Virus record (IMG/VR): IMGVR_UViG_3300014205_000183 | DNA: 64,000 bases | Source of the DNA: a virus | Lineage: Duplodnaviria; Caudoviricetes | Strand: one strand, 5' to 3' | In this document: positions 27,316-46,772 of the stretch, piece after piece | How the letters are laid out: every line of letters begins with the position of its first letter | How positions within the stretch are numbered: position 1 is the first letter of the stretch | Program-made: the position numbers and the translations under genes | Notes under the pieces: model-generated | Seen by the model: only the letters and a program-made list of their open reading frames with translations | What the model was told of the DNA's origin: nothing | Database searches by the model: none

Positions 27316-27447
27316 TGCGGGTAACGCATGAAACGAGCTTTTTTTGACGGTTGCTCTGCCAACTGAGCTACAGCAGCCTAAGCCGCTGATGGGACTCGAA
27401 CCCATGACCTACTGTGTGGTTGAAGTATTCGTCTCTCCAACACCGCA
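27316..27447 (-). ncRNA. yrlA: YrlA-type Y RNA 1
   Basis: Paired termini, UACUUC motif, T arm (GGUUCGAGUCC) preceding D arm (GUAGCUCAGUUGGCAGAGC); adjacent to Ro60. Confidence 0.85.
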
Positions 27448-27455
27448 AATTATAA

Positions 27456-27541
27456 ATCCGGGAACGTTCGACTGCCGTTAGTGGGTTACCCCACGGTCAT
27501 ACCAAAAAAGAATGAAGTAACGGATGTCTATCACCACGGAT
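27456..27541 (-). ncRNA. Short Y RNA 2 (no tRNA-like module)
   Basis: Same terminal motifs CGUGGUGAUAG..UACUUC / CGUUCCCGG. Confidence 0.75.
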
Positions 27542-27557
27542 CATTTTTCTTATTAAT

Positions 27558-27671
27558 AAGTCGGGAACGGGCACTGCACGTTAGCCCTTACCAAATAGGG
27601 CGAGGCATCTGGCGTTAACCAGGTGCACTGGGATTTGAACCTAGAAGTAGGTGCAATAATCACCACGACTT
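27558..27671 (-). ncRNA. Y RNA 3 (divergent tRNA-like module)
   Basis: Same terminal motifs; GGUUCAAAUCC T arm. Confidence 0.75.
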
Positions 27672-28444
27672 GAATATGTGAAAGAACAAATAGACCAATT
27701 TATAAACCCAGTTAGAGGAAAAATAGAGGTAAAAAATAACCCCTACCGTGGCTGTTGCCAGTACCGCCCTCCAACCAAGCAATTTTTAAGAGTAGCTTGA
27801 GTGTCGGTACCGGTACTAATGATCTGTCCATATGAACAAACCCGTTCTCAGCCCTTGTTCTCTCACTACTCAACGTTTAAGGTTACCTTGATAATATTAG
27901 CTAACATTAATGTGGCCACAAAGAACGTCGAATACCAGGTACTGGTTATGAGCCAGCAGTCCAATATCACCTTTAAGACCTTCTTGCTACCAAAATATTA
28001 TCAAAGAACCAGTTTCTGTGTTCACGGGAGTGTCAGGCATCATCAGTGCAGGATTGAGAGCTACCCGGGCAGAATCGATTCTACTTGACCGGACAATCCT
28101 AACTGCACCCAACACAAGAAACTCCCGAGAACACACAATCAATTTGGAGCCAGACGCCCCCGGTTGATTAGACCGAAGGTTTGCTACGGAATCACCCGTA
28201 TGCTGGCAAGTTTTTACCTCTCTTCGTATCTCTACAGGCAGGAGGAGATCCCGGGAGCTGTTTTACCAGCCGCCACCCACCACCGTATTTTGTTAAATAC
28301 GGAAAATATTTCTCGTCGTAAGAATAAAGAGGCTTGTGGCCCCGCCTGGTCCCCGGCCTTACAACGAAATTTTAAAGGGGGTATATCCTTATCTTTTAGG
28401 GATAAGTGCCCTCGGGTGGAGTCTATATACCCTTTAATTTATAA

Positions 28445-28579
28445 TGCCGGTAACGTGCGAAACACTGACGTGTGCGCTCTACCACTGAGCTACGTTCGGC
28501 ATGAATGGGCCAAACGACAGGATTCGAACCTGTGACCTCACCCTCCAAAAGGGAAGTAAGTGTATCTATCAACACGGCA
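28445..28579 (-). ncRNA. yrlA: YrlA-type Y RNA 4
   Basis: GCCGUGUUGAUAG..UACUUC, T arm GGUUCGAAUCC, then D arm GUAGCUCAGUGGUAGAGC, CGUUACCGGC. Confidence 0.85.
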
Positions 28580-28615
28580 AATTTTATATCAAAGAACAAG
28601 CTAATCTACAAACCT

Positions 28616-28738
28616 CAGCAGAAGTGGGAGTCGAACCCACAGAACCCAGAGAGATAACAGACTCTCTAAGTAACCTCTTTTCGCTTGCCGTTATCGCAGC
28701 TACTCGAAAGCGCGGCTGCCAATTTTCGCCATTCTGCT
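28616..28738 (-). ncRNA. tRNA-like RNA with an expanded anticodon/variable region
   Basis: AGCAGAA/UUCUGCU acceptor, D arm, GUGGG-UUCGACU-CCCAC T arm; no 7-nt anticodon loop. Confidence 0.65.
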
Positions 28739-29639
28739 GATTTCTTTTTAACGATCATAGAGGGGCATGGTCAGCACGGAGGTTTATAAGCCCCTCACCG
28801 CTGAGTATTTAATTCAGCTTCAACCAACTATGCTTGTCCTCTACAATCTACATGTCAAAGTCATGGGTCAGAATTTAGTCAAAAACTTAACCTAAACCCT
28901 AAGTCTCTGCTTCTGTTTGGACTGGCTACCGTCCATGCAAATATGGCGCCCCTACAATAGAGTGACTATTCACAACACTTGCCCTAATGCCTTGCAGTTA
29001 CCCCGGGTGCGGCACCTACTCTAGTGTCATTGCAGCATCTCTTCGCTGCGTAGAGGACTTTTAATAAGTGCTACTAGATCCGGTTGTTGGAGCTGCATTA
29101 GCGCCTAGAGAGGATGTGTTCGCACGGTTTAAAGATTCTCACAAGGTTGGGCAGGTAGTGTCTCCTGCTCTGACTGGTCAAGCCTCTTTATTCTCGGCCC
29201 TTCCCACGTAACCAACGGGTGAGCTTCCGAGTTCATCAACGTGTTTCAACGCTGCACCAACCCTGTCAGAATCCTTAACTCTTTTACAAGTGAGGTTGGC
29301 TAACACGCACTTGTGTCCGAGTTGTTTACCGAGTTCGCTCGGTGGTCCACGGGCAACCCTGCGTTGCTCCTCACTTATTTTTTAAGGGTGTCCTGAACTT
29401 TAGACGAACTGCGTCAAGCAAGCCGGATCGTGACCCCGGATTTCCCTAAGTTTGAAGACACAGCCAAGGGTCGCGCCCTTCTCGACGGTCTCTCACCGCA
29501 AGCCATGCCAAATTTATAAACCAACAGGAGATATATCCATAAGGATATAACAAAGTTACTGGAGCAATTACGCTTCATCACAACGGTAGCGACCTTACGG
29601 TGCGCCCATCCTGTTGATAATTTATTTCAAAGAACAAAA

Positions 29640-29838
29640 ATCATATATCGATGGAGTCGAACCACCTAGTCTGCCTACTTACATTTACCTACCGGATTTT
29701 CATGTCCGTTCCAGTGTAGGCCGTGCACCAGTTGTTTAGACCGCACACGTACAGGATTTGAACCCGCAATAAATGTGTGCTTCAACAGCATTTGCAGCTT
29801 ACGAGGCTACTGCGTTCACCATGACGCCCCACATATGA
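29640..29838 (-). ncRNA. ~200-nt tRNA-like RNA (anticodon CGU, very large variable region)
   Basis: UCAUAUG/UAUAUGA termini, D arm, GUAGC-CUCGUAA-GCUGC arm, two T-loop hairpins. Confidence 0.6.
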
Positions 29839-29867
29839 TTTTAAAAGAACATTTTAATTTCCTAAAT

Positions 29868-29896
29868 AACATAAACTATTAAAAATTAAAAGTCAA
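29868..29896 (-). promoter_or_regulatory. Promoter for the ncRNA island/Ro60 unit
   Basis: TTGACT-17-TATGTT with the shared upstream T tract; boxA-like site just downstream. Confidence 0.7.
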
Positions 29897-30035
29897 CATA
29901 AAAATAAAAAAAAATTATCACACTCGGTACGATTATTCTTTACATCTCATTTTTAACACTATATATTAGCAGCATCATCGACCAACGGAGTTTAACCATT
30001 TTGATATCTACTCCGTATATCAAGAAAGGACATGT

Positions 30036-30740
30036 ATGATGCATTCAAATTCTTTTGTCTTAGCTGTCAAGTCGGCGGACAACAAAATCCTTCGTGAAAT
30101 CGGAGGACAGGTTTTCCTCACATTCAATTCAGAGTATTCTCTCCTGCTGAAGAACCTTAACAATGTAAAAAGCTGTTGCACAGTTAGCATTGACGGAACG
30201 GATGTTCTAGGTGGTCACGAGTTGATCGTCGAAGCACATTCCAGTATTGACCTAGAGAGATTTGTGGTAGATGGCAACTTTGGAAGTGGTCGCCGCTTCA
30301 AATTTGTACCACTTACGGACTCTAAGGTACAAGACCCCTCTTCTGCTGAAAATGGTATCGTGGAAGTGCGGTTCTGGAAAGAGAAAGTTATTCAACCTAT
30401 CTTCATAGGGAGTAACTCTCTTCTTCGATCAAGCGGGGTGATCCATCCTAACTCCAGCAGTTGCTTCTATTCAGCTCCTATAGGTACTGCCTGCTGTGAT
30501 AGTATGGCTACTCCAGCGGCTGCGGGGGCTACTGTAGAAGGTGCATATAGCAATCAGCAGTTTGGCAGCGGATACTTCGGAGAAAAAGACGGGGCACCCA
30601 CCGTGCTGCGGCTTAAGTTGGTTGGTCAGGTAGATAAACCACTAACAGTAGAAGCTACTAAAAATAAACACTGCACTAACTGTGGCCGAAAAGCCAAGTT
30701 CAATGATTATTTCTGTGGTGGCTGCGGTAAAGCTCTATAA
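30036..30740 (+). CDS. Hypothetical protein with C-terminal Zn ribbon
   Basis: AAGGA RBS; CTNC..CGGC. Confidence 0.75.
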   Translation: MMHSNSFVLAVKSADNKILREIGGQVFLTFNSEYSLLLKNLNNVKSCCTVSIDGTDVLGGHELIVEAHSSIDLERFVVDGNFGSGRRFKFVPLTDSKVQDPSSAENGIVEVRFWKEKVIQPIFIGSNSLLRSSGVIHPNSSSCFYSAPIGTACCDSMATPAAAGATVEGAYSNQQFGSGYFGEKDGAPTVLRLKLVGQVDKPLTVEATKNKHCTNCGRKAKFNDYFCGGCGKAL

Positions 30741-30763
30741 GATCCAGTTACTCGGTCGATGAC

Positions 30764-30795
30764 AGCCCGGCTTCCATGGTGGAGGCCGGGTTTTT
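30764..30795. terminator. Terminator hairpin between the convergent CDS and tRNA array
   Basis: CCCGGCTTCCA/TGGAGGCCGGG, U tract on + strand. Confidence 0.75.
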
Positions 30796-30802
30796 AATTT
30801 AA

Positions 30803-30925
30803 TGCCGGTAACGTGCGTTTTCGGATGTTTTTTGTTTTACCATTAAACTACACCTTACGGCGTCGGGATTCGAACCCGAATCTTTCTTTAGACAGAAGAA
30901 GTATCCGATAACTATCAACACGGCA
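30803..30925 (-). ncRNA. yrlA: YrlA-type Y RNA 5 (last RNA of the tRNA array)
   Basis: Termini identical to Y RNA 4; T arm then D arm. Confidence 0.82.
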
Positions 30926-30929
30926 ATTT

Positions 30930-31018
30930 TGGCGGATGAAGTGAGACTCGAACTCACAACGCCGTCTCTGGCGCTACTGCTTTTCAAGAGCAGCTCCCGT
31001 TCCAGCAGGAACTCATCC
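30930..31018 (-). tRNA. tRNA-Ser(UGA)
   Basis: CUGCU-CUUGAAA-AGCAG; long variable arm; CCA. Confidence 0.85.
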
Positions 31019-31026
31019 ATATATTT

Positions 31027-31103
31027 TGGAGCACCCTCCCGGAATTGCACCGAGGTATTAATCGGGTTGCGACCGACCGCCTTACTGTCTTGGCTAAGAG
31101 TGC
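31027..31103 (-). tRNA. tRNA-Cys(GCA)
   Basis: Loop UCGCAAC; U73; CCA. Confidence 0.85.
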
Positions 31104-31113
31104 ATATAAATTT

Positions 31114-31194
31114 TGGTGCGCTAGGAGGGACTTGCACCCCCACGATTTCTCGGCAGATCCTAAGTCTGCTGCGTCTGCATTCCGCCACAAGCGC
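31114..31194 (-). tRNA. tRNA-Leu(UAG)
   Basis: GCAGA-CUUAGGA-UCUGC; CCA. Confidence 0.9.
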
Positions 31195-31200
31195 ATAATC

Positions 31201-31277
31201 TGGTATCCTCGGTTGGATTCTAACCAACGACATCCTCTTTAGGAAAGAAGAACTCTGAACAGCTGAGCTACGAGGAT
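31201..31277 (-). tRNA. tRNA-Arg(CCU)
   Basis: Loop UUCCUAA; CCA. Confidence 0.85.
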
Positions 31278-31278
31278 A

Positions 31279-31355
31279 TGGTGCTTCGAGTCGGACTTAA
31301 ACCGACGGCATCAGCCTTCGGAAAGCTGCGCTCTATTCATCTGAGCTATCGAAGC
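31279..31355 (-). tRNA. tRNA-Arg(CCG)
   Basis: Loop UUCCGAA; CCA. Confidence 0.88.
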
Positions 31356-31360
31356 CTGTT

Positions 31361-31437
31361 TGGCGTTCATGGAAGGACTTGAACCTTCAGCCTCCTGGTC
31401 CGTAGCCAGGTGCTCTATCCAATTGAGCTACACGAAC
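31361..31437 (-). tRNA. tRNA-Arg(ACG)
   Basis: Loop CUACGGA; CCA. Confidence 0.92.
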
Positions 31438-31443
31438 ATATTT

Positions 31444-31519
31444 TGGCAGGAGAGGCCGGAGTTGAACCGACGACATCCAGCTCCAGAGGCTGGCGTTCTA
31501 CCAACTGAACTACTCTCCA
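31444..31519 (-). tRNA. tRNA-Gln(CUG)
   Basis: Loop CUCUGGA; CCA. Confidence 0.9.
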
Positions 31520-31526
31520 ACGATTT

Positions 31527-31600
31527 TGGCTGAGGTGCATCGACTTGCACGATGATAACAGGCTCCAAAGGCCTGGGTCCTACTATTGAACGACACCCCA
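31527..31600 (-). tRNA. tRNA-Gln(UUG)
   Basis: Loop CUUUGGA; CCA. Confidence 0.9.
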
Positions 31601-31634
31601 AAATTTTTAAAAGAGCCGGGTGGTTGTCCCCGGC

Positions 31635-32195
31635 TTATGCTTCAAGTTCAACATCCCAATAAACAAAGTCTTTCCAACTCTCGTGCGGCAGGTGCTTAAG
31701 AGCCTGAATCTTCAGGGTTATTTCACGCTCAAGAGAGAGGTCGTACTTCGGCGCCTGGGGTGTGCACCACAAGTGCATTCCAGCTTGTGCCGGCGTTCGG
31801 TTAGCCTTCTTGCCGTTGCAAGCTAAGCAGCAGCATACAAGATTACGCCAATGACTTGTTCCACCCTGGTCACGAGGAACCACGTGGTCCCAGTGCATCT
31901 TCTGGATAGGTAAAAACGTCCGGCAATACTGACAATGCCCCCGGTCACGAATCCACAGATTCTTACGGGACAGCCGCATAACACGGCCACGCTTCTGGAC
32001 ATTGCCCGCAAAGTAAAGCAATCTGATAATAGCTGGGGCTTCCATAGCCTGCTTCCAGGAACGCAGATGCTTATCGGGGTAACTGGCAATGATTTCAGCG
32101 CGACCAGCTTCCACTTTCGTGATAGCATCTTCCCAACTAGCATACATATTCACAGGCGCATAGTTGCGGCTCAACACTAAACAAGTTGTACTCAT
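31635..32195 (-). CDS. HNH endonuclease (McrA-like)
   Basis: RDRGHCQYC, DHVVPRDQGG, WRNLV..C..CN..K; AGGAGG RBS. Confidence 0.92.
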   Translation of the reverse strand: MSTTCLVLSRNYAPVNMYASWEDAITKVEAGRAEIIASYPDKHLRSWKQAMEAPAIIRLLYFAGNVQKRGRVMRLSRKNLWIRDRGHCQYCRTFLPIQKMHWDHVVPRDQGGTSHWRNLVCCCLACNGKKANRTPAQAGMHLWCTPQAPKYDLSLEREITLKIQALKHLPHESWKDFVYWDVELEA

Positions 32196-32224
32196 TGAAT
32201 TACCTCCTTTCTGTGATTAAGTTT

Positions 32225-32299
32225 TGGAGCGGCAAGCGGGCATCGCACCCGCGACATTCACCTTGGCAAGGTGACATTCTACTACTGAATTATTGCCGC
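32225..32299 (-). tRNA. tRNA-Gly(GCC)
   Basis: Loop UUGCCAA; CCA. Confidence 0.9.
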
Positions 32300-32311
32300 A
32301 TATTATAAATT

Positions 32312-32385
32312 TGGTACCCCTACTTGGAATCGGACCAAGGTCCACGGATTAAGAGTCCGCTGCACTACCACTGTGCTATAGAGGC
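32312..32385 (-). tRNA. tRNA-Lys(CUU)
   Basis: Loop CUCUUAA; CCA. Confidence 0.88.
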
Positions 32386-32386
32386 A

Positions 32387-32463
32387 TGGTGCTTCCGGTG
32401 AGTATCGCACTCACGACCCCCTCATTAAAAGTGAGGTGCTCTAACTAGCTGAGCTACGGAGGC
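32387..32463 (-). tRNA. tRNA-Lys(UUU)
   Basis: Loop CUUUUAA; CCA. Confidence 0.9.
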
Positions 32464-32478
32464 ATAATTTTAAATTTG

Positions 32479-32551
32479 AGCCTTCTGCCGGAGTCGCGCC
32501 GGCGACCTGCTGCTTACGAAACAGCTGCTCTACTGACTGAGCTAAGAAGGC
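32479..32551 (-). tRNA. tRNA-Thr(CGU)
   Basis: Loop UUCGUAA; no encoded CCA. Confidence 0.85.
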
Positions 32552-32577
32552 ACGCCTGATGGCGCTTGGCTGTTATT

Positions 32578-32653
32578 TGGAGCCTGCGACCGGAGTTGCA
32601 CCGATGACTTCCACATTACAAGTATGGCGCTCTACTGACTGAGCTACGCAGGC
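32578..32653 (-). tRNA. tRNA-Thr(UGU)
   Basis: Loop CUUGUAA; CCA. Confidence 0.9.
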
Positions 32654-32794
32654 AAGTTTAAACCCACTACCGTCCTCCCCCGCCCCTCGTACGAATTTCA
32701 CGTAGCCGCTTGGGTCAACCCGGCAGCAGATGACTTAATGACTCTATAAATCCGAGAAATGACAACATAAAACTTTTAAATGACAATATAAAAA

Positions 32795-32865
32795 TGGAAC
32801 TGCGGGGAGTCGCACCCCGGTCTCGACTATGCCATAGTCGGATTCTACTGCTGAAATACAGCCCC
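32795..32865 (-). tRNA. tRNA-Ala(GGC)
   Basis: Loop AUGGCAU; G3-U70. Confidence 0.85.
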
Positions 32866-32875
32866 AGATTGATTT

Positions 32876-32951
32876 TGGTGGAATCGAAGGGCATCGAACC
32901 CTCAACCCCTAGCTTGCAAAGCTAGTGCTCTCCCAATTGAGCTACGACCCC
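32876..32951 (-). tRNA. tRNA-Ala(UGC)
   Basis: Loop UUUGCAA; G3-U70; CCA. Confidence 0.92.
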
Positions 32952-32956
32952 ATATT

Positions 32957-33030
32957 TGGTACCCCTACGCGGTTATGCTCCGCGGTCAGATGGCTGAAAA
33001 CCACCGGTTCTACTATTAAACTATAGGGGC
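32957..33030 (-). tRNA. tRNA-Glu(UUC)
   Basis: Loop UUUUCAG; atypical T loop; CCA. Confidence 0.85.
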
Positions 33031-33038
33031 ATGAATTT

Positions 33039-33113
33039 TGGTACTCATATGGGGAATTGCACCCCAGTCAGACGGCTGAGAACCGCCGATCCTAACTACT
33101 GGACGATATGAGT
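33039..33113 (-). tRNA. tRNA-Glu(CUC)
   Basis: Loop UUCUCAG; CCA. Confidence 0.88.
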
Positions 33114-33121
33114 ATGTATTT

Positions 33122-33197
33122 TGGTGCGAACTCCCGGAATCGCACCGGGGACGCCAGCCTTTTCAGGGCTGCGCTCTACTGTCTGAGCTAAGTCCGC
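33122..33197 (-). tRNA. tRNA-Phe(GAA)
   Basis: Loop CUGAAAA; CCA. Confidence 0.9.
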
Positions 33198-33207
33198 ATA
33201 ATAATTT

Positions 33208-33283
33208 TGGCACGGGTAGTAGGATTTGCACCCACATCTCCAGGCTTAGAAAACCTGCACACTATCTATTGTGCTATACCCGT
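33208..33283 (-). tRNA. tRNA-Arg(UCU)
   Basis: Loop UUUCUAA; CCA. Confidence 0.88.
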
Positions 33284-33288
33284 AAGAT

Positions 33289-33410
33289 TGGAGGATTCCG
33301 CCAGGCTATTCTGGACCGCCCGGCAATGCCCGCACGTCATACAGGCTTAGATACCGGTTACACACCGATGACGTCGGTGCAGTGGCGGAGCATTGCAACT
33401 CCCGGAACTC
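33289..33410 (-). ncRNA. Unassigned ~120-nt CCA-ending structured RNA
   Basis: UUCCG/CGGAA paired termini followed by UCCUCCA; internal ACGUCAU/AUGACGU stem. Confidence 0.55.
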
Positions 33411-33414
33411 TTTT

Positions 33415-33489
33415 TGGAGCGCCTGGCCGGATTCCCACCGGCGTAAGTCAGCTTGGAAGGCTGGTGGACAAGTACTATCCCACAGACGC
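33415..33489 (-). tRNA. tRNA-Gly(UCC)
   Basis: Loop CUUCCAA; T loop UGGGAAU; CCA. Confidence 0.85.
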
Positions 33490-33571
33490 ATAATGTTAAC
33501 AAAGGTGTGGTGGGCGCCCCGGATTCTCAGGTCCTGGCCGACCAGATTCCACTTCACCTTCAAATTTTAAA

Positions 33572-33647
33572 ATCTCCGGTAGCCCGACTCGAACGGACTC
33601 AGGCGCCCGCTAAGGCCCCCTGCTACCCTTACATCATTCCCGAAGAT
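33572..33647 (-). pseudogene. Degenerate tRNA-like element
   Basis: Paired termini and GUCCG-UUCGAGU-CGGGC T arm; poor D and anticodon arms. Confidence 0.5.
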
Positions 33648-33722
33648 ATTGTACAGGAGACCATCCGCGTTGTCACGTAGAAGCCAGTTTTACCGCGTTT
33701 GCAGCCCGAACCTGTTTACTTT

Positions 33723-33798
33723 TGGTAGCGCAGGTGAGAATCCAACTCACCGCCCCAGGCTTATGAGACCCGGATGCCCAGCAGGGCACCTCCGCGCA
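33723..33798 (-). tRNA. tRNA-Met(CAU), initiator-like, aberrant D arm
   Basis: Loop CUCAUAA; 1-72 mismatch; CCA. Confidence 0.75.
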
Positions 33799-33801
33799 AT
33801 T

Positions 33802-33877
33802 TGGTATCGCCAGCTCGATTCGCACGAGCGACATCAGCCTTATGAGAGCTGCGTTCTTCTACCTGAACTATGGCGAT
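33802..33877 (-). tRNA. tRNA-Met/Ile2(CAU)
   Basis: Loop CUCAUAA; CCA. Confidence 0.85.
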
Positions 33878-33885
33878 ATGAATTT

Positions 33886-33961
33886 TGGCTGTCCGGGCAA
33901 GGATCGAACTTGCGACCTTCTCATTAACAGTGAGTTGCTCTGCCTACTGAGCTACTGGACA
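33886..33961 (-). tRNA. tRNA-Asn(GUU)
   Basis: Loop CUGUUAA; CCA. Confidence 0.9.
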
Positions 33962-33992
33962 ATGAATTACTGTTATATTTATATGCGTGTTA

Positions 33993-34970
33993 CTAATTAT
34001 TTTTTAAACTTGTTCTGTACGCTTGATAATGGGATAAGGAACAGAAAAAATGAGATTGATTACATTTTTCTTTTTCTTTTATTCTCTTAACTTTTATAGC
34101 AAATAAGCTATGACAATATGCACAGGATATTTGTGTATACGCGGCTCTTTTTATTCGACCCTGCTTTCCTTGTTCTACAAATGCCACACGGTGTGTGAGA
34201 TTATTCTTAGTCCAATATCCGCGCCCTATTTTTGTATGTATCCCGTACAATTTACACCATTTTCTTATGGAATTTCCAGTTACTCCGTAAACCTGCGCTA
34301 TTTTTGTGATGGGCGAGGATTTAACTAATAATTGTAATTGCTCCATACTAGGTCTGTTCGTAATTTTTTTTACTGCATGCTGTCTGGCAGCACACGAGAG
34401 ACATCGGGTGCTTACTTTTGAAATTATCGAACCACAATCAATGCAATTTTTGATCTTTCGTCTATTTTTACCGTTGGTGGTGGGTAGCTGCATATTACAA
34501 TTAGGACATACTATTCTTAAATTTTCTATACGATAATCATCTCGATGTCCATTTATATGGTCAAGTATTAACGTTAATGGTTTTTCAAACCATTCTGGTC
34601 TTTGTCCACATAATGCACATATATTTTTTAAAATACCCTCTTTCAATAATCGATGTTTAAGTCCTCGATTATCTTTACACGGAGAGTGGTTTATAAGTAA
34701 TTCACTAAGAGGTCTAGCAGGAACTCTGAACTTTAAATCCGCTCCTTGTTTAGCTTTAAAATGTTCAATATTTATTTTATCATAATCTAATCGTTCTTTT
34801 AACGCACGAAGTGCCGCGCCGTTCTTAACCCTACCAAAGTAAGACAGTATAGCTGAAAAGGACGAACATTTTTTAACAACCTGCTCAAAAGTATCCCGGT
34901 CTAAAGACCAGAACACTCCATTACGCTTTAGTTGTCTTTCTTTACTATAATGTTCTTGGTTCATATCCAT
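33993..34970 (-). CDS. HNH homing endonuclease with Zn-finger/HTH DNA-binding tail
   Basis: CALC..LILDHINGHRDDYRIENLRIVCPNC; KIAQVYGVTGNSIRKW. Confidence 0.88.
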   Translation of the reverse strand: MDMNQEHYSKERQLKRNGVFWSLDRDTFEQVVKKCSSFSAILSYFGRVKNGAALRALKERLDYDKINIEHFKAKQGADLKFRVPARPLSELLINHSPCKDNRGLKHRLLKEGILKNICALCGQRPEWFEKPLTLILDHINGHRDDYRIENLRIVCPNCNMQLPTTNGKNRRKIKNCIDCGSIISKVSTRCLSCAARQHAVKKITNRPSMEQLQLLVKSSPITKIAQVYGVTGNSIRKWCKLYGIHTKIGRGYWTKNNLTHRVAFVEQGKQGRIKRAAYTQISCAYCHSLFAIKVKRIKEKEKCNQSHFFCSLSHYQAYRTSLKNN

Positions 34971-35010
34971 AATAAACTAAATAAAACAAAATAACAAAGC
35001 AAGAAAAATA

Positions 35011-35087
35011 CAGGGCTGACGGGACTTGCACCCGCAAAAACCTCCCGCGTGACAGGCGGGCGCTCTAACTATTTGAGCTACAGCCCT
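35011..35087 (-). tRNA. tRNA-Asp(GUC)
   Basis: Loop CUGUCAC; no encoded CCA. Confidence 0.88.
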
Positions 35088-35099
35088 ATGAATTTTAAA

Positions 35100-35175
35100 T
35101 GGAGCCTTCAAGGAGAATCGCACTCCTGACCTCGTCCTTACCAAGGACGTGCTCTACTAACTAAGCTATGAAGGC
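35100..35175 (-). tRNA. tRNA-Thr(GGU)
   Basis: Loop UUGGUAA; CCA. Confidence 0.9.
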
Positions 35176-35176
35176 A

Positions 35177-35262
35177 TGGCGGAGAAGGTGAGATTTGCAC
35201 TCACAGACCATCGCTGGTTGCGGCGTTTCCAACACCGTGCTCGACTACTGAGCGACTTCTCC
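35177..35262 (-). tRNA. tRNA-Ser(GGA)
   Basis: Loop UUGGAAA; long variable arm; CCA. Confidence 0.87.
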
Positions 35263-35266
35263 ATTT

Positions 35267-35353
35267 TGGCGGAAGTAGAAAGACTTGAACTTTCATACCC
35301 TTTCGGGTTTGCCAGTTTTCGAGGCTGGTGACCTACCATTGGTCGATACTTCC
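35267..35353 (-). tRNA. tRNA-Ser(CGA)
   Basis: Loop CUCGAAA; long variable arm; CCA. Confidence 0.87.
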
Positions 35354-35404
35354 ATCTTCACGTCTTCACGTTTACGTGAAACCATGATATTTCGTGAATA
35401 ATAT

Positions 35405-35494
35405 TGGCGGAAGAGACAGGACTTGCACCTGCAAGACGGTTTTAACCGCCGGATGGTTAGCAACCACCTGCCTTACTGATTAGACTACTCTTCC
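35405..35494 (-). tRNA. tRNA-Ser(GCU)
   Basis: Loop UUGCUAA; long variable arm; CCA. Confidence 0.88.
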
Positions 35495-35499
35495 ATATT

Positions 35500-35576
35500 T
35501 GGTACTCCGTAATCGAGTTGCACGATTGACCTTCGCCTTATCAGAGCGACGTTCTAACTAACTGAACTAACGGAGC
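35500..35576 (-). tRNA. tRNA-Ile(GAU)
   Basis: Loop CUGAUAA; CCA. Confidence 0.9.
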
Positions 35577-35580
35577 AAGT

Positions 35581-35657
35581 TGGTACGGGAGATACGATTT
35601 GCACGTACATATGTCACCTTATAAGAGTGATGCCTTAACTAGTCGAGCCACTCCCGT
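35581..35657 (-). tRNA. tRNA-Ile(UAU)
   Basis: UCACU-CUUAUAA-GGUGA; CCA. Confidence 0.87.
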
Positions 35658-35665
35658 GAGAATAT

Positions 35666-35740
35666 TGGCAGGCCGACTCGGACTCGAACCGAGGTCAATG
35701 GTTTTGGAGACCACCACACTAACCGCTGTGCTATCAGCCT
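35666..35740 (-). tRNA. tRNA-Trp(CCA)
   Basis: Loop CUCCAAA; CCA. Confidence 0.9.
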
Positions 35741-35747
35741 ATGAAAT

Positions 35748-35824
35748 TGGTCAGCATGACAGGATTTGCACCTGCGGTCTCTCGGTCCCGAACCGAGCGC
35801 ACTACTGGGCTGTGCTACATGCTG
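35748..35824 (-). tRNA. tRNA-Pro(CGG)
   Basis: Loop UUCGGGA; CCA. Confidence 0.9.
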
Positions 35825-35907
35825 ATGATTTTAGCGGACACACCGGCGCAGACAACCGCAGAGAGGGTACTACCCATTGGAGCTGACTGTCCGACATGTC
35901 CTGGATT

Positions 35908-35984
35908 TGGTCGGGTAAGCCGGAATCGCACCGACGACATTCTGGTCCCAAACCAGACGCTCTACTTGGCTGAGCTACTACCCG
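35908..35984 (-). tRNA. tRNA-Pro(UGG)
   Basis: Loop UUUGGGA; CCA. Confidence 0.9.
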
Positions 35985-36000
35985 TAATACTTTAGAGTTG

Positions 36001-36675
36001 TTAATTTGTTTTTGTCTTAATCAAATTATGTAAAGTTTTTCTTCCTTTACCATGATTAAGACCACCCCACGTGGGTGTCATAGCATGACAATTAGGACAT
36101 AAAACTTCATGATTACCTGGTGTTTGATTGAAGGCATTGCCATCTTTGTGGTTTACTTGCAGTACACTTTTATTTGATGAGGGATTTGGCTTATTAAATC
36201 CACATTGTTGGCATTTGTAACCTGCTTCTTTTATTAGATAGTTTCGTAAGATACGAGGTATGGGCATCGGCCCGTTTTTTAAACCGGCTTTCCATTCAGT
36301 TATATATTTTTGTTGCCTATATTTTACTTGACAACTATGCGAACAATATTTTTGATTACCTGGTATCTCTTTTTGGCATTCTACACATTTTGAAATACTT
36401 GATTTTCTTTTAGGAAACATCCTGTTATTATACACCGCAGCACACGATCTGCTGCAAAAGATATTTTTACTTTTCTTTCTACGTGCCCTGTATTGTGTTA
36501 GTGTAAGTTCTTTTCCGCAGTTTATGCAATTAAGTTTTTCCCTAACCTTAAACCACTTATCCTGATTTAATTGAATGAGGCATTTTTTAGAACATACGGA
36601 CTTTGGTCGATATTTTAATCGAAAGTTACTTCTAACTATTGGTGCTTGGCAAACACAACATTTAACAACAGGCAT
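36001..36675 (-). CDS. HNH homing endonuclease with N-terminal Zn-finger repeats
   Basis: Three CxxC..CSxxC repeats; CQQC..LQVNHKDGNAFN...LCPNCH; start uncertain. Confidence 0.85.
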   Translation of the reverse strand: MPVVKCCVCQAPIVRSNFRLKYRPKSVCSKKCLIQLNQDKWFKVREKLNCINCGKELTLTQYRARRKKSKNIFCSRSCAAVYNNRMFPKRKSSISKCVECQKEIPGNQKYCSHSCQVKYRQQKYITEWKAGLKNGPMPIPRILRNYLIKEAGYKCQQCGFNKPNPSSNKSVLQVNHKDGNAFNQTPGNHEVLCPNCHAMTPTWGGLNHGKGRKTLHNLIKTKTN

Positions 36676-36765
36676 ACCTATAATATATCTTAAAGGAGTC
36701 GAAAAAGCTAATACAATACACCATATTAAGATATTACTATGTTCGAATCCCAATATACTTTAAAA

Positions 36766-36841
36766 TGGGGTGTCGTACGGGTTCTGCCCCCGTGCCGCAT
36801 CCTCCACAGGGATGTGTGCTTCTAGTTACACTAACGACACC
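36766..36841 (-). tRNA. tRNA-His(GUG)
   Basis: Loop CUGUGGA; G-1:C73; CCA. Confidence 0.87.
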
Positions 36842-36863
36842 ATGATTTCATATGAGTATTTCC

Positions 36864-36941
36864 TGAAGGGGACCCACCGCTGTGGATGCCGGGTATCACC
36901 CCGGTTCAGGCAATGCGCCGCCTGATTTTAAGTCCCCTTCA
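36864..36941 (-). ncRNA. Unassigned four-way-junction RNA
   Basis: UGAAGGGGAC/GUCCCCUUCA closing stem with three internal hairpins. Confidence 0.55.
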
Positions 36942-36958
36942 AGAAACAAATTTTAATT

Positions 36959-37038
36959 TACCCCCACTGAGACTTGCACTCAGAAGCCGAAGCATAGAGG
37001 CTTAAACTCTACGTGTTTTCTAATTTCACCATGGGGGC
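36959..37038 (-). tRNA. tRNA-Leu(UAA)
   Basis: Loop UUUAAGC; no encoded CCA. Confidence 0.85.
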
Positions 37039-37050
37039 AAGGGCTAGTTT

Positions 37051-37126
37051 TGGTGCCGTCGGAGGTGGTTGCAACCTCACTGGGTGGCTTTTGAGACCAC
37101 TATCTCTGCTCTTGGATTACGACGGC
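37051..37126 (-). tRNA. tRNA-Leu(CAA), short variable loop
   Basis: Loop CUCAAAA; CCA. Confidence 0.82.
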
Positions 37127-37131
37127 AAATT

Positions 37132-37210
37132 TGGTGCCGCCAGGACTCTCCCTAGGGGCAGTGGTCACACCACTGACATTCCACGAATGAATGCGATGAG
37201 CAGGTGTCGC
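37132..37210 (-). pseudogene. Degenerate tRNA-like element ending in CCA
   Basis: CAGUGG/CCACUG and CUAGG/CCUGG hairpins then CGGCACCA; 5' half unrecognisable. Confidence 0.4.
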
Positions 37211-37223
37211 TGATACATATGCA

Positions 37224-37311
37224 TGGTACTTCGGGTGGGACTTGCACCCACAGGTGAGCTTGCGCTCGCGTGCACCTCAAGCACGTAGCTATGCTATTCG
37301 CCTACCGAAGT
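37224..37311 (-). tRNA. tRNA-Leu(GAG)
   Basis: Loop UUGAGGU; long variable arm; CCA. Confidence 0.87.
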
Positions 37312-37318
37312 ATGATTT

Positions 37319-37402
37319 TGGTGCGCCGTGATGGAATCGAACCACCTGTCCGTTAAGAACGCCGGGTTACAACCGGTTACCCCGCCATGGAGAATACGAC
37401 GC
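37319..37402 (-). tRNA. tRNA-Tyr(GUA)
   Basis: Loop UUGUAAC; variable arm; CCA. Confidence 0.85.
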
Positions 37403-37425
37403 ATGAATTTTAAAAAGAAAAATAA

Positions 37426-37497
37426 TAGGGCCAGAAAGACTTGCACTTTCAACCTTCTGGATGTAAGCCAGCTGCGCTGCTATTGCGCCATGGCCCC
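37426..37497 (-). tRNA. tRNA-Val(UAC)
   Basis: Loop CUUACAU; no encoded CCA. Confidence 0.87.
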
Positions 37498-37521
37498 ATA
37501 TTTGAATAATCGTACCTGAAA

Positions 37522-46421: not shown

Positions 46422-46772
46422 GTGGGCGCATTGGTTTCGACTGGTAAGGGAGATCAGGGCTTGCATGCAGAGGATGATAGTTGGCCTCTTTAATCACTCT
46501 ATTAAGTAATAACTAACAACGATAAAGTTGTTTCTTTGGCTATACGCCAGAGCGCAGCGATTGAAGCCTGCTTCATGGCTTCTCTTGCCAGTGTAAAAGC
46601 AAATGAAGAATTCCGCGCAGCTGCCTAAGCTCGTGTAGGTCTTATCAAATAGTGCTGCTGAGGGTCAGGTTTTGTCCGAAACACCACCTCAGAGTAAGCT
46701 AAGAATCGGAATAAGCATGTAGAAGTTTTGGTTAAAGTTAACAGGACGCGAGTTCGATTCTCGCCGCCTACA
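46422..46772 (+). ncRNA. ssrA: tmRNA
   Basis: GUGGGCG...UUCGAC 5' end; GGACGCGAGUUCGAUUCUCGCCGCCUACA 3' end with G3-U70; pk1; AUAACU resume context; tag ORF 46515-46628 ending RAAA; TTGACA upstream. Confidence 0.92.

Follow-up and report, generated by a model that had tools for sequence, protein, structure and literature searches.

Genome and tRNA array

The contact between G18 of the D-loop and Psi55 of the T-loop at the elbow of transfer RNA (tRNA) is taught as near universal. Here, we report a viral tRNA array in which 26 of 37 genes carry A18 and G55 instead. The array lies at positions 30930-37498, on the minus strand, of a 64,000-nucleotide (nt) stretch of DNA (the window) from IMG/VR virus record IMGVR_UViG_3300014205_000183 (Duplodnaviria; Caudoviricetes), and its 37 genes cover all 20 amino acids. 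The virus record that includes the window is 132 kb long (G+C content, 42.8%), 68% complete (CheckV estimate), and assigned to the provirus class (IMG/VR). Its source is a landfill metagenome, and near-identical pieces of it are present in a groundwater metagenome; no RNA data set is listed among those that match.

ARAGORN called 35 genes in the array, and Infernal with Rfam added two, tRNA-Glu(UUC) (32960-33030) and tRNA-His(GUG) (36769-36840), both of which were read by hand. Genes described below are ARAGORN calls unless Infernal is named. Two further ARAGORN calls in the window, a 95-nt tRNA-like RNA (29743-29837) and a transfer-messenger RNA (tmRNA; 46422-46772), were confirmed with Infernal.

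Elbow positions across the array

D-loop and T-loop letters were read directly for each of the 37 genes. G55 was found in 26 (70%), and all 26 had A18. The T-loop was UGCRA in 22 of these genes, with CGCGA in tRNA-Thr(CGU), UGGGA in tRNA-Gly(UCC), AGCAU in tRNA-Glu(UUC), and GGCAG in tRNA-His. G19 followed A18 in 25 of the 26, and in the exception, tRNA-Gly(UCC), C19 was matched by G56. G18 was retained in all 11 tRNAs with U55 or C55, of which eight combined GG with UUC; the others were tRNA-Lys(CUU) (GG with UCC), tRNA-Arg(CCU) (GU with UUA), and tRNA-Arg(CCG) (GA with UUU). The 19-56 pair was exchanged for another Watson-Crick pair in tRNA-Arg(CCU) (U19-A56), tRNA-Arg(CCG) (A19-U56), and tRNA-Gly(UCC) (C19-G56).

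The association was also tabulated under a T-loop-blind rule, in which positions 18 and 19 were set from the D-loop alone before Fisher's test was applied. This table held 25 A18/G55 genes, 9 G18/Y55 genes, no A18/Y55 gene, and 1 G18/G55 gene (P = 1.4e-7). The lone G18/G55 gene was tRNA-Leu(UAG), for which AG is also possible in the 9-nt D-loop, and tRNA-Tyr and tRNA-Ser(UGA) were left unassigned owing to the D-stem register drawn by ARAGORN, GG being plainly present in both. With these three genes read sensibly, there were 26 A18/G55 and 11 G18/Y55 genes and none in the two mixed cells (26/0/0/11). A MAFFT alignment (29 class-I tRNAs) was discarded because the D-loop gap was misplaced for 9-nt loops, and the positional rule was used in its place.

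An original prediction, made from the letters of the window, had proposed this association from about 27 G55 genes among 39; the association held under the blind rule, and the totals became 26 and 37 with ARAGORN and Infernal. It had also named UGCRA as the main T-loop of the G55 tRNAs, A18 as their near-constant partner, eight tRNAs as keeping GG with UUC, and 19-56 covariation in tRNA-Arg(CCU), tRNA-Arg(CCG), and tRNA-Gly(UCC), and in each of these the loops read as it had said. The G18 G19 and T54-Psi55-C56 conserved in the tRNA family are departed from in 26 of the 37 genes (A18, G55), with 19-56 altered in three, but this departure does not remove the array genes from the tRNA family.

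Integrity and relatedness of the genes

With Infernal (model RF00005), 36 of the 37 array tRNAs scored 42 to 68 bits (gathering score, 29 bits); tRNA-Ser(UGA), called by ARAGORN, scored 45.5 bits to the related tRNA-Sec model. CCA was encoded in 32 of the 37 genes, and identity elements were in place (G3-U70 in both tRNA-Ala genes, G-1 in tRNA-His, and U1-A72 with G73 in tRNA-Gln(UUG)). The anticodon loops of the G55 class were normal, at 7 nt, and the class covered 17 amino acids.

Mean identity over 34 gap-free stem positions was 0.370 among the G55 genes, 0.379 among the others, and 0.376 between the two classes, and the most similar pair of the array joined tRNA-Ser(UGA) (U55) with tRNA-Ser(GGA) (G55). 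The covariation is thus broad and independent of tRNA relatedness; because it spans 17 families with stems no more alike than canonical ones, it argues for structural constraint and not for decay or recent duplication. Recent duplication or gene conversion, considered separately as the origin of the G55 class, was ruled out by the stem identities. Genome-wide mutational drift toward UGC is likewise not indicated, since UUC is intact in the tmRNA of this genome and in six of its tRNA-like T-arms.

Individual genes and neighboring features

All array genes are on the minus strand. A18 G19 with a UGCAA T-loop was read in tRNA-Leu(GAG) (37224-37311), tRNA-Leu(UAA) (36958-37039), tRNA-Pro(CGG) (35748-35824), tRNA-Ile(UAU) (35581-35657), tRNA-Ile(GAU) (35500-35576), tRNA-Ser(GCU) (35405-35494), tRNA-Ser(GGA) (35177-35262), tRNA-Asp(GUC) (35010-35088), tRNA-Arg(UCU) (33208-33283), tRNA-Glu(CUC) (33039-33113), tRNA-Thr(UGU) (32578-32653), tRNA-Gln(UUG) (31527-31600), and tRNA-Cys(GCA) (31027-31103); the last of these is drawn with an anticodon stem of 6 bp and with C in place of U at position 33. 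tRNA-Val(UAC) (37425-37498) has A18 G19 with U54 G55 C56 A57. tRNA-Leu(UAG) (31114-31194) also has UGCAA, and its D-loop, GAAUGCAGA, is ambiguous, giving A18 G19 only if a single base makes up the stretch after G19. A18 G19 was paired with UGCGA in tRNA-Pro(UGG) (35908-35984), tRNA-Thr(GGU) (35100-35175), tRNA-Met(CAU) (33802-33877), tRNA-Phe(GAA) (33122-33197), tRNA-Ala(GGC) (32794-32866), tRNA-Lys(UUU) (32387-32463), and tRNA-Gly(GCC) (32225-32299).

Among the less regular members of the G55 class, tRNA-Thr(CGU) (32478-32551) has A18 G19 with C54 G55 C56, and tRNA-Gly(UCC) (33415-33489) has both tertiary pairs changed (A18 C19 with U54 G55 G56). The two Infernal-only genes also have A18 G19, and in them the 54-58 pair varies too: tRNA-His reads G54 G55 C56 A57 G58, and tRNA-Glu(UUC), with its 54-58 pair swapped, reads A54 G55 C56 A57 U58.

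Canonical G18 G19 elbows were read in tRNA-Tyr(GUA) (37319-37402; U54 U55 C56), tRNA-Trp(CCA) (35666-35740; UUCGA), tRNA-Ser(CGA) (35267-35353; UUCAA), tRNA-Asn(GUU) (33886-33961; UUCGA), tRNA-Ala(UGC) (32876-32951; UUCGA), tRNA-Gln(CUG) (31444-31519; UUCAA), tRNA-Arg(ACG) (31361-31437; UUCAA), and tRNA-Ser(UGA) (30930-31018; UUCGA). The two 19-56 swaps with G18 are those of tRNA-Arg(CCG) (31279-31355; G18 A19 with U54 U55 U56) and tRNA-Arg(CCU) (31201-31277; G18 U19 with U54 U55 A56). tRNA-Lys(CUU) (32312-32385) has the G18-C55 variant (G18 G19 with U54 C55 C56), a second minority elbow that was also found at loci L253, L257, L259, and L264 and at many viral loci.

The contrast RNAs are the tmRNA (plus strand), with a canonical GG and UUCGA elbow, and six tRNA-like T-arms with UUCRA loops (27400-30874, minus strand) in the Ro60/Y-RNA region and the 95-nt tRNA-like RNA. 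A seventh hairpin of the Ro60/Y-RNA region (29995, minus strand) has a UUAAA loop. The T-arms of these Y RNAs and tRNA mimics, and that of the tmRNA, are canonical UUC while most of the true tRNAs are not, and the mimics may be decoys for proteins that read U55.

Three HNH homing-endonuclease genes (31635-32195, 33993-34970, and 36001-36753, all minus strand) split the array into blocks, and HNH genes likewise lie between tRNA blocks in the annotation of Leptolyngbya phage Lbo-JY46. Contigs from four other metagenomes were aligned to the array and gave no variant at positions 18, 19, 55, or 56; they mostly held canonical tRNAs of other organisms, so this result is uninformative. Some of these contigs have C27-G43 for U27-A43 of tRNA-Ala(UGC) (window positions 32924 and 32910), a compensatory change that may belong to the tRNA-Ala of other organisms.

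Occurrence in other phages and in bacteria

A near-identity search of the array against cultured phages gave no match, and a distant search with tRNA-Phe gave matches in only two cultured phages. A D-arm pattern requiring A18 (TAGCTCAGNNAGTAGAGC) matched more than 119 IMG/VR contigs and more than 120 contigs of species-representative genomes. ARAGORN was run on loci from the matches listed, and removal of identical sequences left a pooled set of 1,045 tRNAs from outside the window, which, being drawn with an A18-specific probe, speaks to association and not to prevalence; the pooled counts that follow are among those matches. A18 G19 occurred with G55 C56 in 162 tRNAs and with U55 C56 in 22, while G18 G19 occurred with U55 C56 in 759 and with G55 C56 in 1. 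G18 A19 with U55 U56 was found in 12 and G18 G19 with C55 C56 in 21. The A18-G55 pairing rule is therefore general and extends beyond this phage, and the counts suggest a route for the switch in which A18/U55 is tolerated and G18/G55 almost never. Positions 54 and 58 were U/A in 989 tRNAs, A/U in 25, A/A in 12, and G/G in 6, so that G54-G58 is a recurrent rare form.

The cellular matches listed were mostly single genes with canonical neighbors, chiefly tRNA-Phe(GAA), tRNA-Thr(GGU or CGU), tRNA-Met, and tRNA-Ile, and came from Patescibacteria, Omnitrophota, Elusimicrobia, Planctomycetales, and some metagenome-assembled genomes (MAGs) of Bacilli. One Patescibacteria genome (Zambryskibacteria) was read for all 43 of its tRNAs, and A18-G55 was present in four (the sole tRNA-Phe, tRNA-Ala(GGC), and both tRNA-Met(CAU) genes); another four had G18-C55. 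Because this genome depends on the A18-G55 form for Phe and Met, there is a strong case that the form must be chargeable and translatable.

The A18-G55 fraction lay between 0/31 and 10/11 across the phage arrays sampled, with none, one, or two such tRNAs in most of them. The cultured Aeromonas phage avDM12-TAAL has it in 1 of 23 tRNAs, its tRNA-Phe. Three complete phages with Ro60 (G003 to G005), which were retrieved through protein similarity and so are unbiased for tRNA, had 0/29, 0/28, and 0/31, and two more Ro60 relatives had 4/18 and 5/20; the three phages with none rule out a link between Ro60 and high G55 content. One of these (G005; locus L274), a complete 118.8-kb phage with terminal repeats, has no G55 but shows 19-56 swaps in tRNA-Arg(CCU) and tRNA-Gln(CUG) (GC with UUG) and in tRNA-Gln(UUG) (GU with UUA), and four G18-C55 tRNAs. 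High fractions were found in three other phages, at 10/11 (L116), 12/27 (G006), and 10/24 (G007). L116 is a 15-kb contig (IMGVR_UViG_3300025913_000660) whose array lies next to an HNH gene and a remote homologue of Ro60 (23% identical to the Ro60 of the window), and AC with UGG and GA with UUU, the rarer pairings, recur there. These three have no more in common with the phage of the window than a distant Ro60 or an HNH gene, so the high-dose state arose in unrelated phages.

A18-G55 thus occurs outside this phage and outside phages altogether, and it is striking here for its share, 70% of a complete decoding set. The original prediction had described a rewiring by the phage under selection, not decay: the covariation across 17 unrelated families is real and not decay, and the phage-specific part does not stand, as cells and other phages have A18-G55. 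No description of A18-G55 covariation in tRNA came up in the literature searched, although older comparative-analysis papers may mention it.

Structural interpretation

In the canonical elbow, residue 18 intercalates between residues 57 and 58 and makes one hydrogen bond to a "universally conserved" Psi55, and the 19-56 pair forms an exposed flat face (PMC4810234). Riboswitch T-loops have G at loop position 2 (nearly always in one receptor context and by preference in others) and an intercalating base that is A in almost every case and is bound through two hydrogen bonds to the sugar edge of this G; their consensus is YGNRA, and UGHAA is the form favored in function (bioRxiv 10.1101/2022.12.26.521914). 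The UGCRA loops of 22 of the 26 G55 tRNAs have this Y-G-N-R-A form with pairable positions 1 and 5. A at loop position 4 (A57) was present in 17 of the 26 and, among the matches listed for the pooled set, in 66% of the A18-G55 class versus 23% of the canonical class. Since a U-G-N-R-A loop, an intercalating A, and enrichment of A57 together make up the generic T-loop/receptor solution, the fold is probably kept.

A18-G55 is, very probably, a structure-preserving compensatory pair. By analogy with riboswitches, A18 would sit between loop positions 4 and 5 of the tRNA T-loop and be bonded to G55, so that a covarying A18-G55 contact would replace G18-Psi55 in working elongator tRNAs. The swap would exchange the tRNA-specific T-loop contact for the generic one and would not disturb the outer face: G19-C56, or one of its Watson-Crick swaps, could still make that flat 19-56 surface. 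The L-shape should be preserved, and with it docking to RNase P, the ribosome, and synthetases. We consider it likely that the A18-G55 tRNAs of the array are translationally active.

The G55 tRNAs have lost the TPsiC signature (U54-U55-C56). TruB is left without its U55 target, position 18 has no G for 2'-O-methylation (Gm18), and proteins that require U55 lose their site. The pair, a minority form in the tRNAs of cells and viruses at large, has come to occupy 26 of 37 genes here, and the likeliest driver would be escape from a factor that reads or cuts a UUC T-loop, for instance a Schlafen tRNase of the Cash type or a toxin that cuts in the T-loop. Taken whole, our best explanation (working tRNAs, an A18-G55 elbow swap, and escape from a UUC-reading factor as its likeliest driver) is a tentative one, to which we give slightly less than an even chance.

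Comparison with known systems

The canonical elbow (G18-Psi55, G19-C56, and T54-A58) and that of the array have in common a T-loop of 7 nt, reverse-Hoogsteen pairing of 54 with 58, a purine at 57, and contacts of 18 and 19 with 55 and 56 (PMC4810234). The 19-56 swaps found here (U-A, A-U, and C-G) are ordinary Watson-Crick covariation; the difference lies at 18-55, which is G18 with Psi55 there and A18-G55 in 26 of the 37 array genes. Generic T-loop/receptor modules of riboswitches, RNase P, and rRNA also have G at loop position 2, a preference for A at position 4, and an intercalating A, but they join helices within one large RNA, whereas here the module would lie inside tRNAs with the adjoining 19-56 pair kept.

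Natural tRNAs without T-Psi-C include the staphylococcal nonproteogenic tRNA-Gly, with a UGC or UGU T-loop (PMC7826273, PMC13443448), and tRNA-Pyl, which in Desulfitobacterium hafniense has G55 and lacks G18 G19 (PMC1851642). Each is a single specialized tRNA whose D-loop is degenerate and offers no compensating A18-G19, whereas here the G19-C56 pair is retained and a whole decoding set obeys strict A18-G55 pairing. The G55 class resembles the nonproteogenic tRNAs in its UGC/UGU T-loop without U55; it does not resemble them in the loss of both G18 and G19, a shortened anticodon loop, or restriction to one amino acid, as 25 of 26 retain G19, their anticodon loops are 7 nt, and 17 amino acids are served.

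Known phage tRNA countermeasures all lie in the anticodon arm (PMC10264068, PMC11464382, PMC12673091, PMC13056530), and a 2023 eLife paper on phage tRNA evasion makes no mention of T- or D-loops. Anticodon-loop variants of mycobacteriophages, T5 tRNA-Lys against PARIS, and T5 tRNA-Tyr against Retron-Eco7 are likewise cases of phage tRNAs that are off consensus at sites read by nucleases (PMC10264068, PMC11464382, PMC12673091). The alteration is in the anticodon loop or arm in those cases and in the elbow here.

Possible drivers and rival explanations

A contact-dependent inhibition (CDI) toxin of Burkholderia cleaves tRNA between T54 and Psi55. A CRISPR-associated Schlafen nuclease, Cash, also cuts tRNA mainly in the T-loop, directly 5' of U55, with UUC as its target, and one substitution at U54 or U55 is enough to stop cleavage; its authors left open whether phage tRNAs are targeted (PMC13462974). 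The UUC cut site is exactly what the G55 tRNAs lack, since the change from U55 to G takes away the site that Cash requires, and because Cash needs U54 and U55, escape from an elbow-reading nuclease is plausible. Cash comes from Chloroflexi and was tested in Escherichia coli, however, and nothing ties it to the host of this phage. A T-loop-directed nuclease, or another reader of U55, is a possible but somewhat doubtful selective driver. A fuller version is more doubtful still, namely that elbow recoding is a counterdefense in which a near-complete decoding set is hidden from tRNA-cleaving nucleases and toxins dependent on U54-U55-C56, with the UUC T-arms of the Y RNAs and mimics as a sink.

Several observations weigh against escape as the driver. 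A18-G55 also occurs in essential cellular tRNAs, where an antidefense role is not obvious, and its scatter across phage arrays has no evident correlate. Eleven array tRNAs, among them the only ones for Tyr, Trp, and Asn, stay canonical (G18), so a UUC-directed nuclease could still cripple translation. Searches of the 68%-complete record for RtcB, TruB, a Schlafen domain, and a CCA-adding enzyme returned none of them and hence no tRNase or tRNA-repair gene, and the outside samples, taken by an A18-specific probe, inform on association rather than on how common the form is.

The main rival to escape is near-neutral compensatory drift, under which A18-G55 is simply an acceptable alternative reached via A18/U55 and has no defense role; its frequency would shift from lineage to lineage, and further in phage tRNAs, as they are less constrained by modification and quality control. 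We regard drift as a possible reading, but not a probable one. The mutational path appears easy, with A18/U55 in 22 of the 184 A18 G19 tRNAs among the matches listed and G18/G55 almost absent, and both the cellular occurrences and the scatter of phage-array fractions (0 to 91%) also speak for it. Against it, the rare state is shared by 26 unrelated genes of one 6.6-kb array, in a genome whose tmRNA and six tRNA-like T-arms are canonical, and drift from a canonical set would require 26 double changes or a directional bias. Under another rival, the array mirrors its host, its tRNAs having been taken from a bacterial lineage already rich in A18-G55. Among the matches listed, bacterial MAGs (Omnitrophota, Patescibacteria, and others) supply the closest relatives of the tRNAs for Phe, Thr, Ala(GGC), Gly(GCC), and Pro(UGG), and these are A18-G55 genes (71 to 82% identity); tRNA-Ala(GGC) has D-loop and T-loop letters identical to those of its counterpart in the Patescibacteria genome. 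Host mirroring nonetheless seems unlikely, as the sole cellular genome fully read has 4 of 43, cellular A18-G55 genes have canonical neighbors, the nearest relatives listed for Asp, Gln(UUG), Arg(UCU), Ser, Leu, and Ile(UAU) are canonical, and the sample is biased toward A18 D-arms.

The coverage of all 20 amino acids is what would be expected of a replacement set, spared while a UUC- or elbow-reading nuclease of the phage itself destroys host tRNAs. We find this very unlikely: the 132-kb record (68% complete) yielded no candidate, Schlafen being the only nuclease family searched, and such an enzyme would also hit the 11 tRNAs, the tmRNA, and the Y-RNA mimics of the phage that keep UUC. Still less probable is a nontranslational role for the G55 tRNAs, as nonribosomal amino-acid donors, decoys, or regulators. 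A precedent exists in the cell-wall tRNA-Gly of Staphylococcus aureus and Staphylococcus epidermidis, which lacks U55 and G18 G19 and has UGC or UGU instead (PMC7826273, PMC13443448), but the class here spans 17 amino acids and keeps G19-C56, normal anticodon loops, CCA, and identity elements, and the only tRNA-Phe of one bacterium uses A18-G55. Decaying pseudogenes or an alignment artifact are refuted in practice by the covariation, which was taken straight from the loops with no alignment and recurs in more than 160 tRNAs from elsewhere; with Infernal the G55 class (42 to 65 bits) does score somewhat below the best canonical genes, but this is expected of two nonconsensus positions, and the cloverleaves are intact.

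Implications

A18-G55 with A57 is a clean and recurrent alternative elbow under a strict pairing rule; it occurs in essential cellular tRNAs and can dominate the set of a phage. It offers a natural test bed for the tolerance of the elbow to the generic T-loop solution and a simple sequence marker for tRNAs that are unable to carry Psi55. Escape from T-loop-directed defense, if true, would explain the arrays with 40 to 90% A18-G55 in scattered phages and would be the first tRNA-based immune evasion beyond the anticodon arm. The array also permits a direct and cheap test of whether phage tRNAs evade T-loop-cutting immune nucleases, the point left open by those who discovered them.

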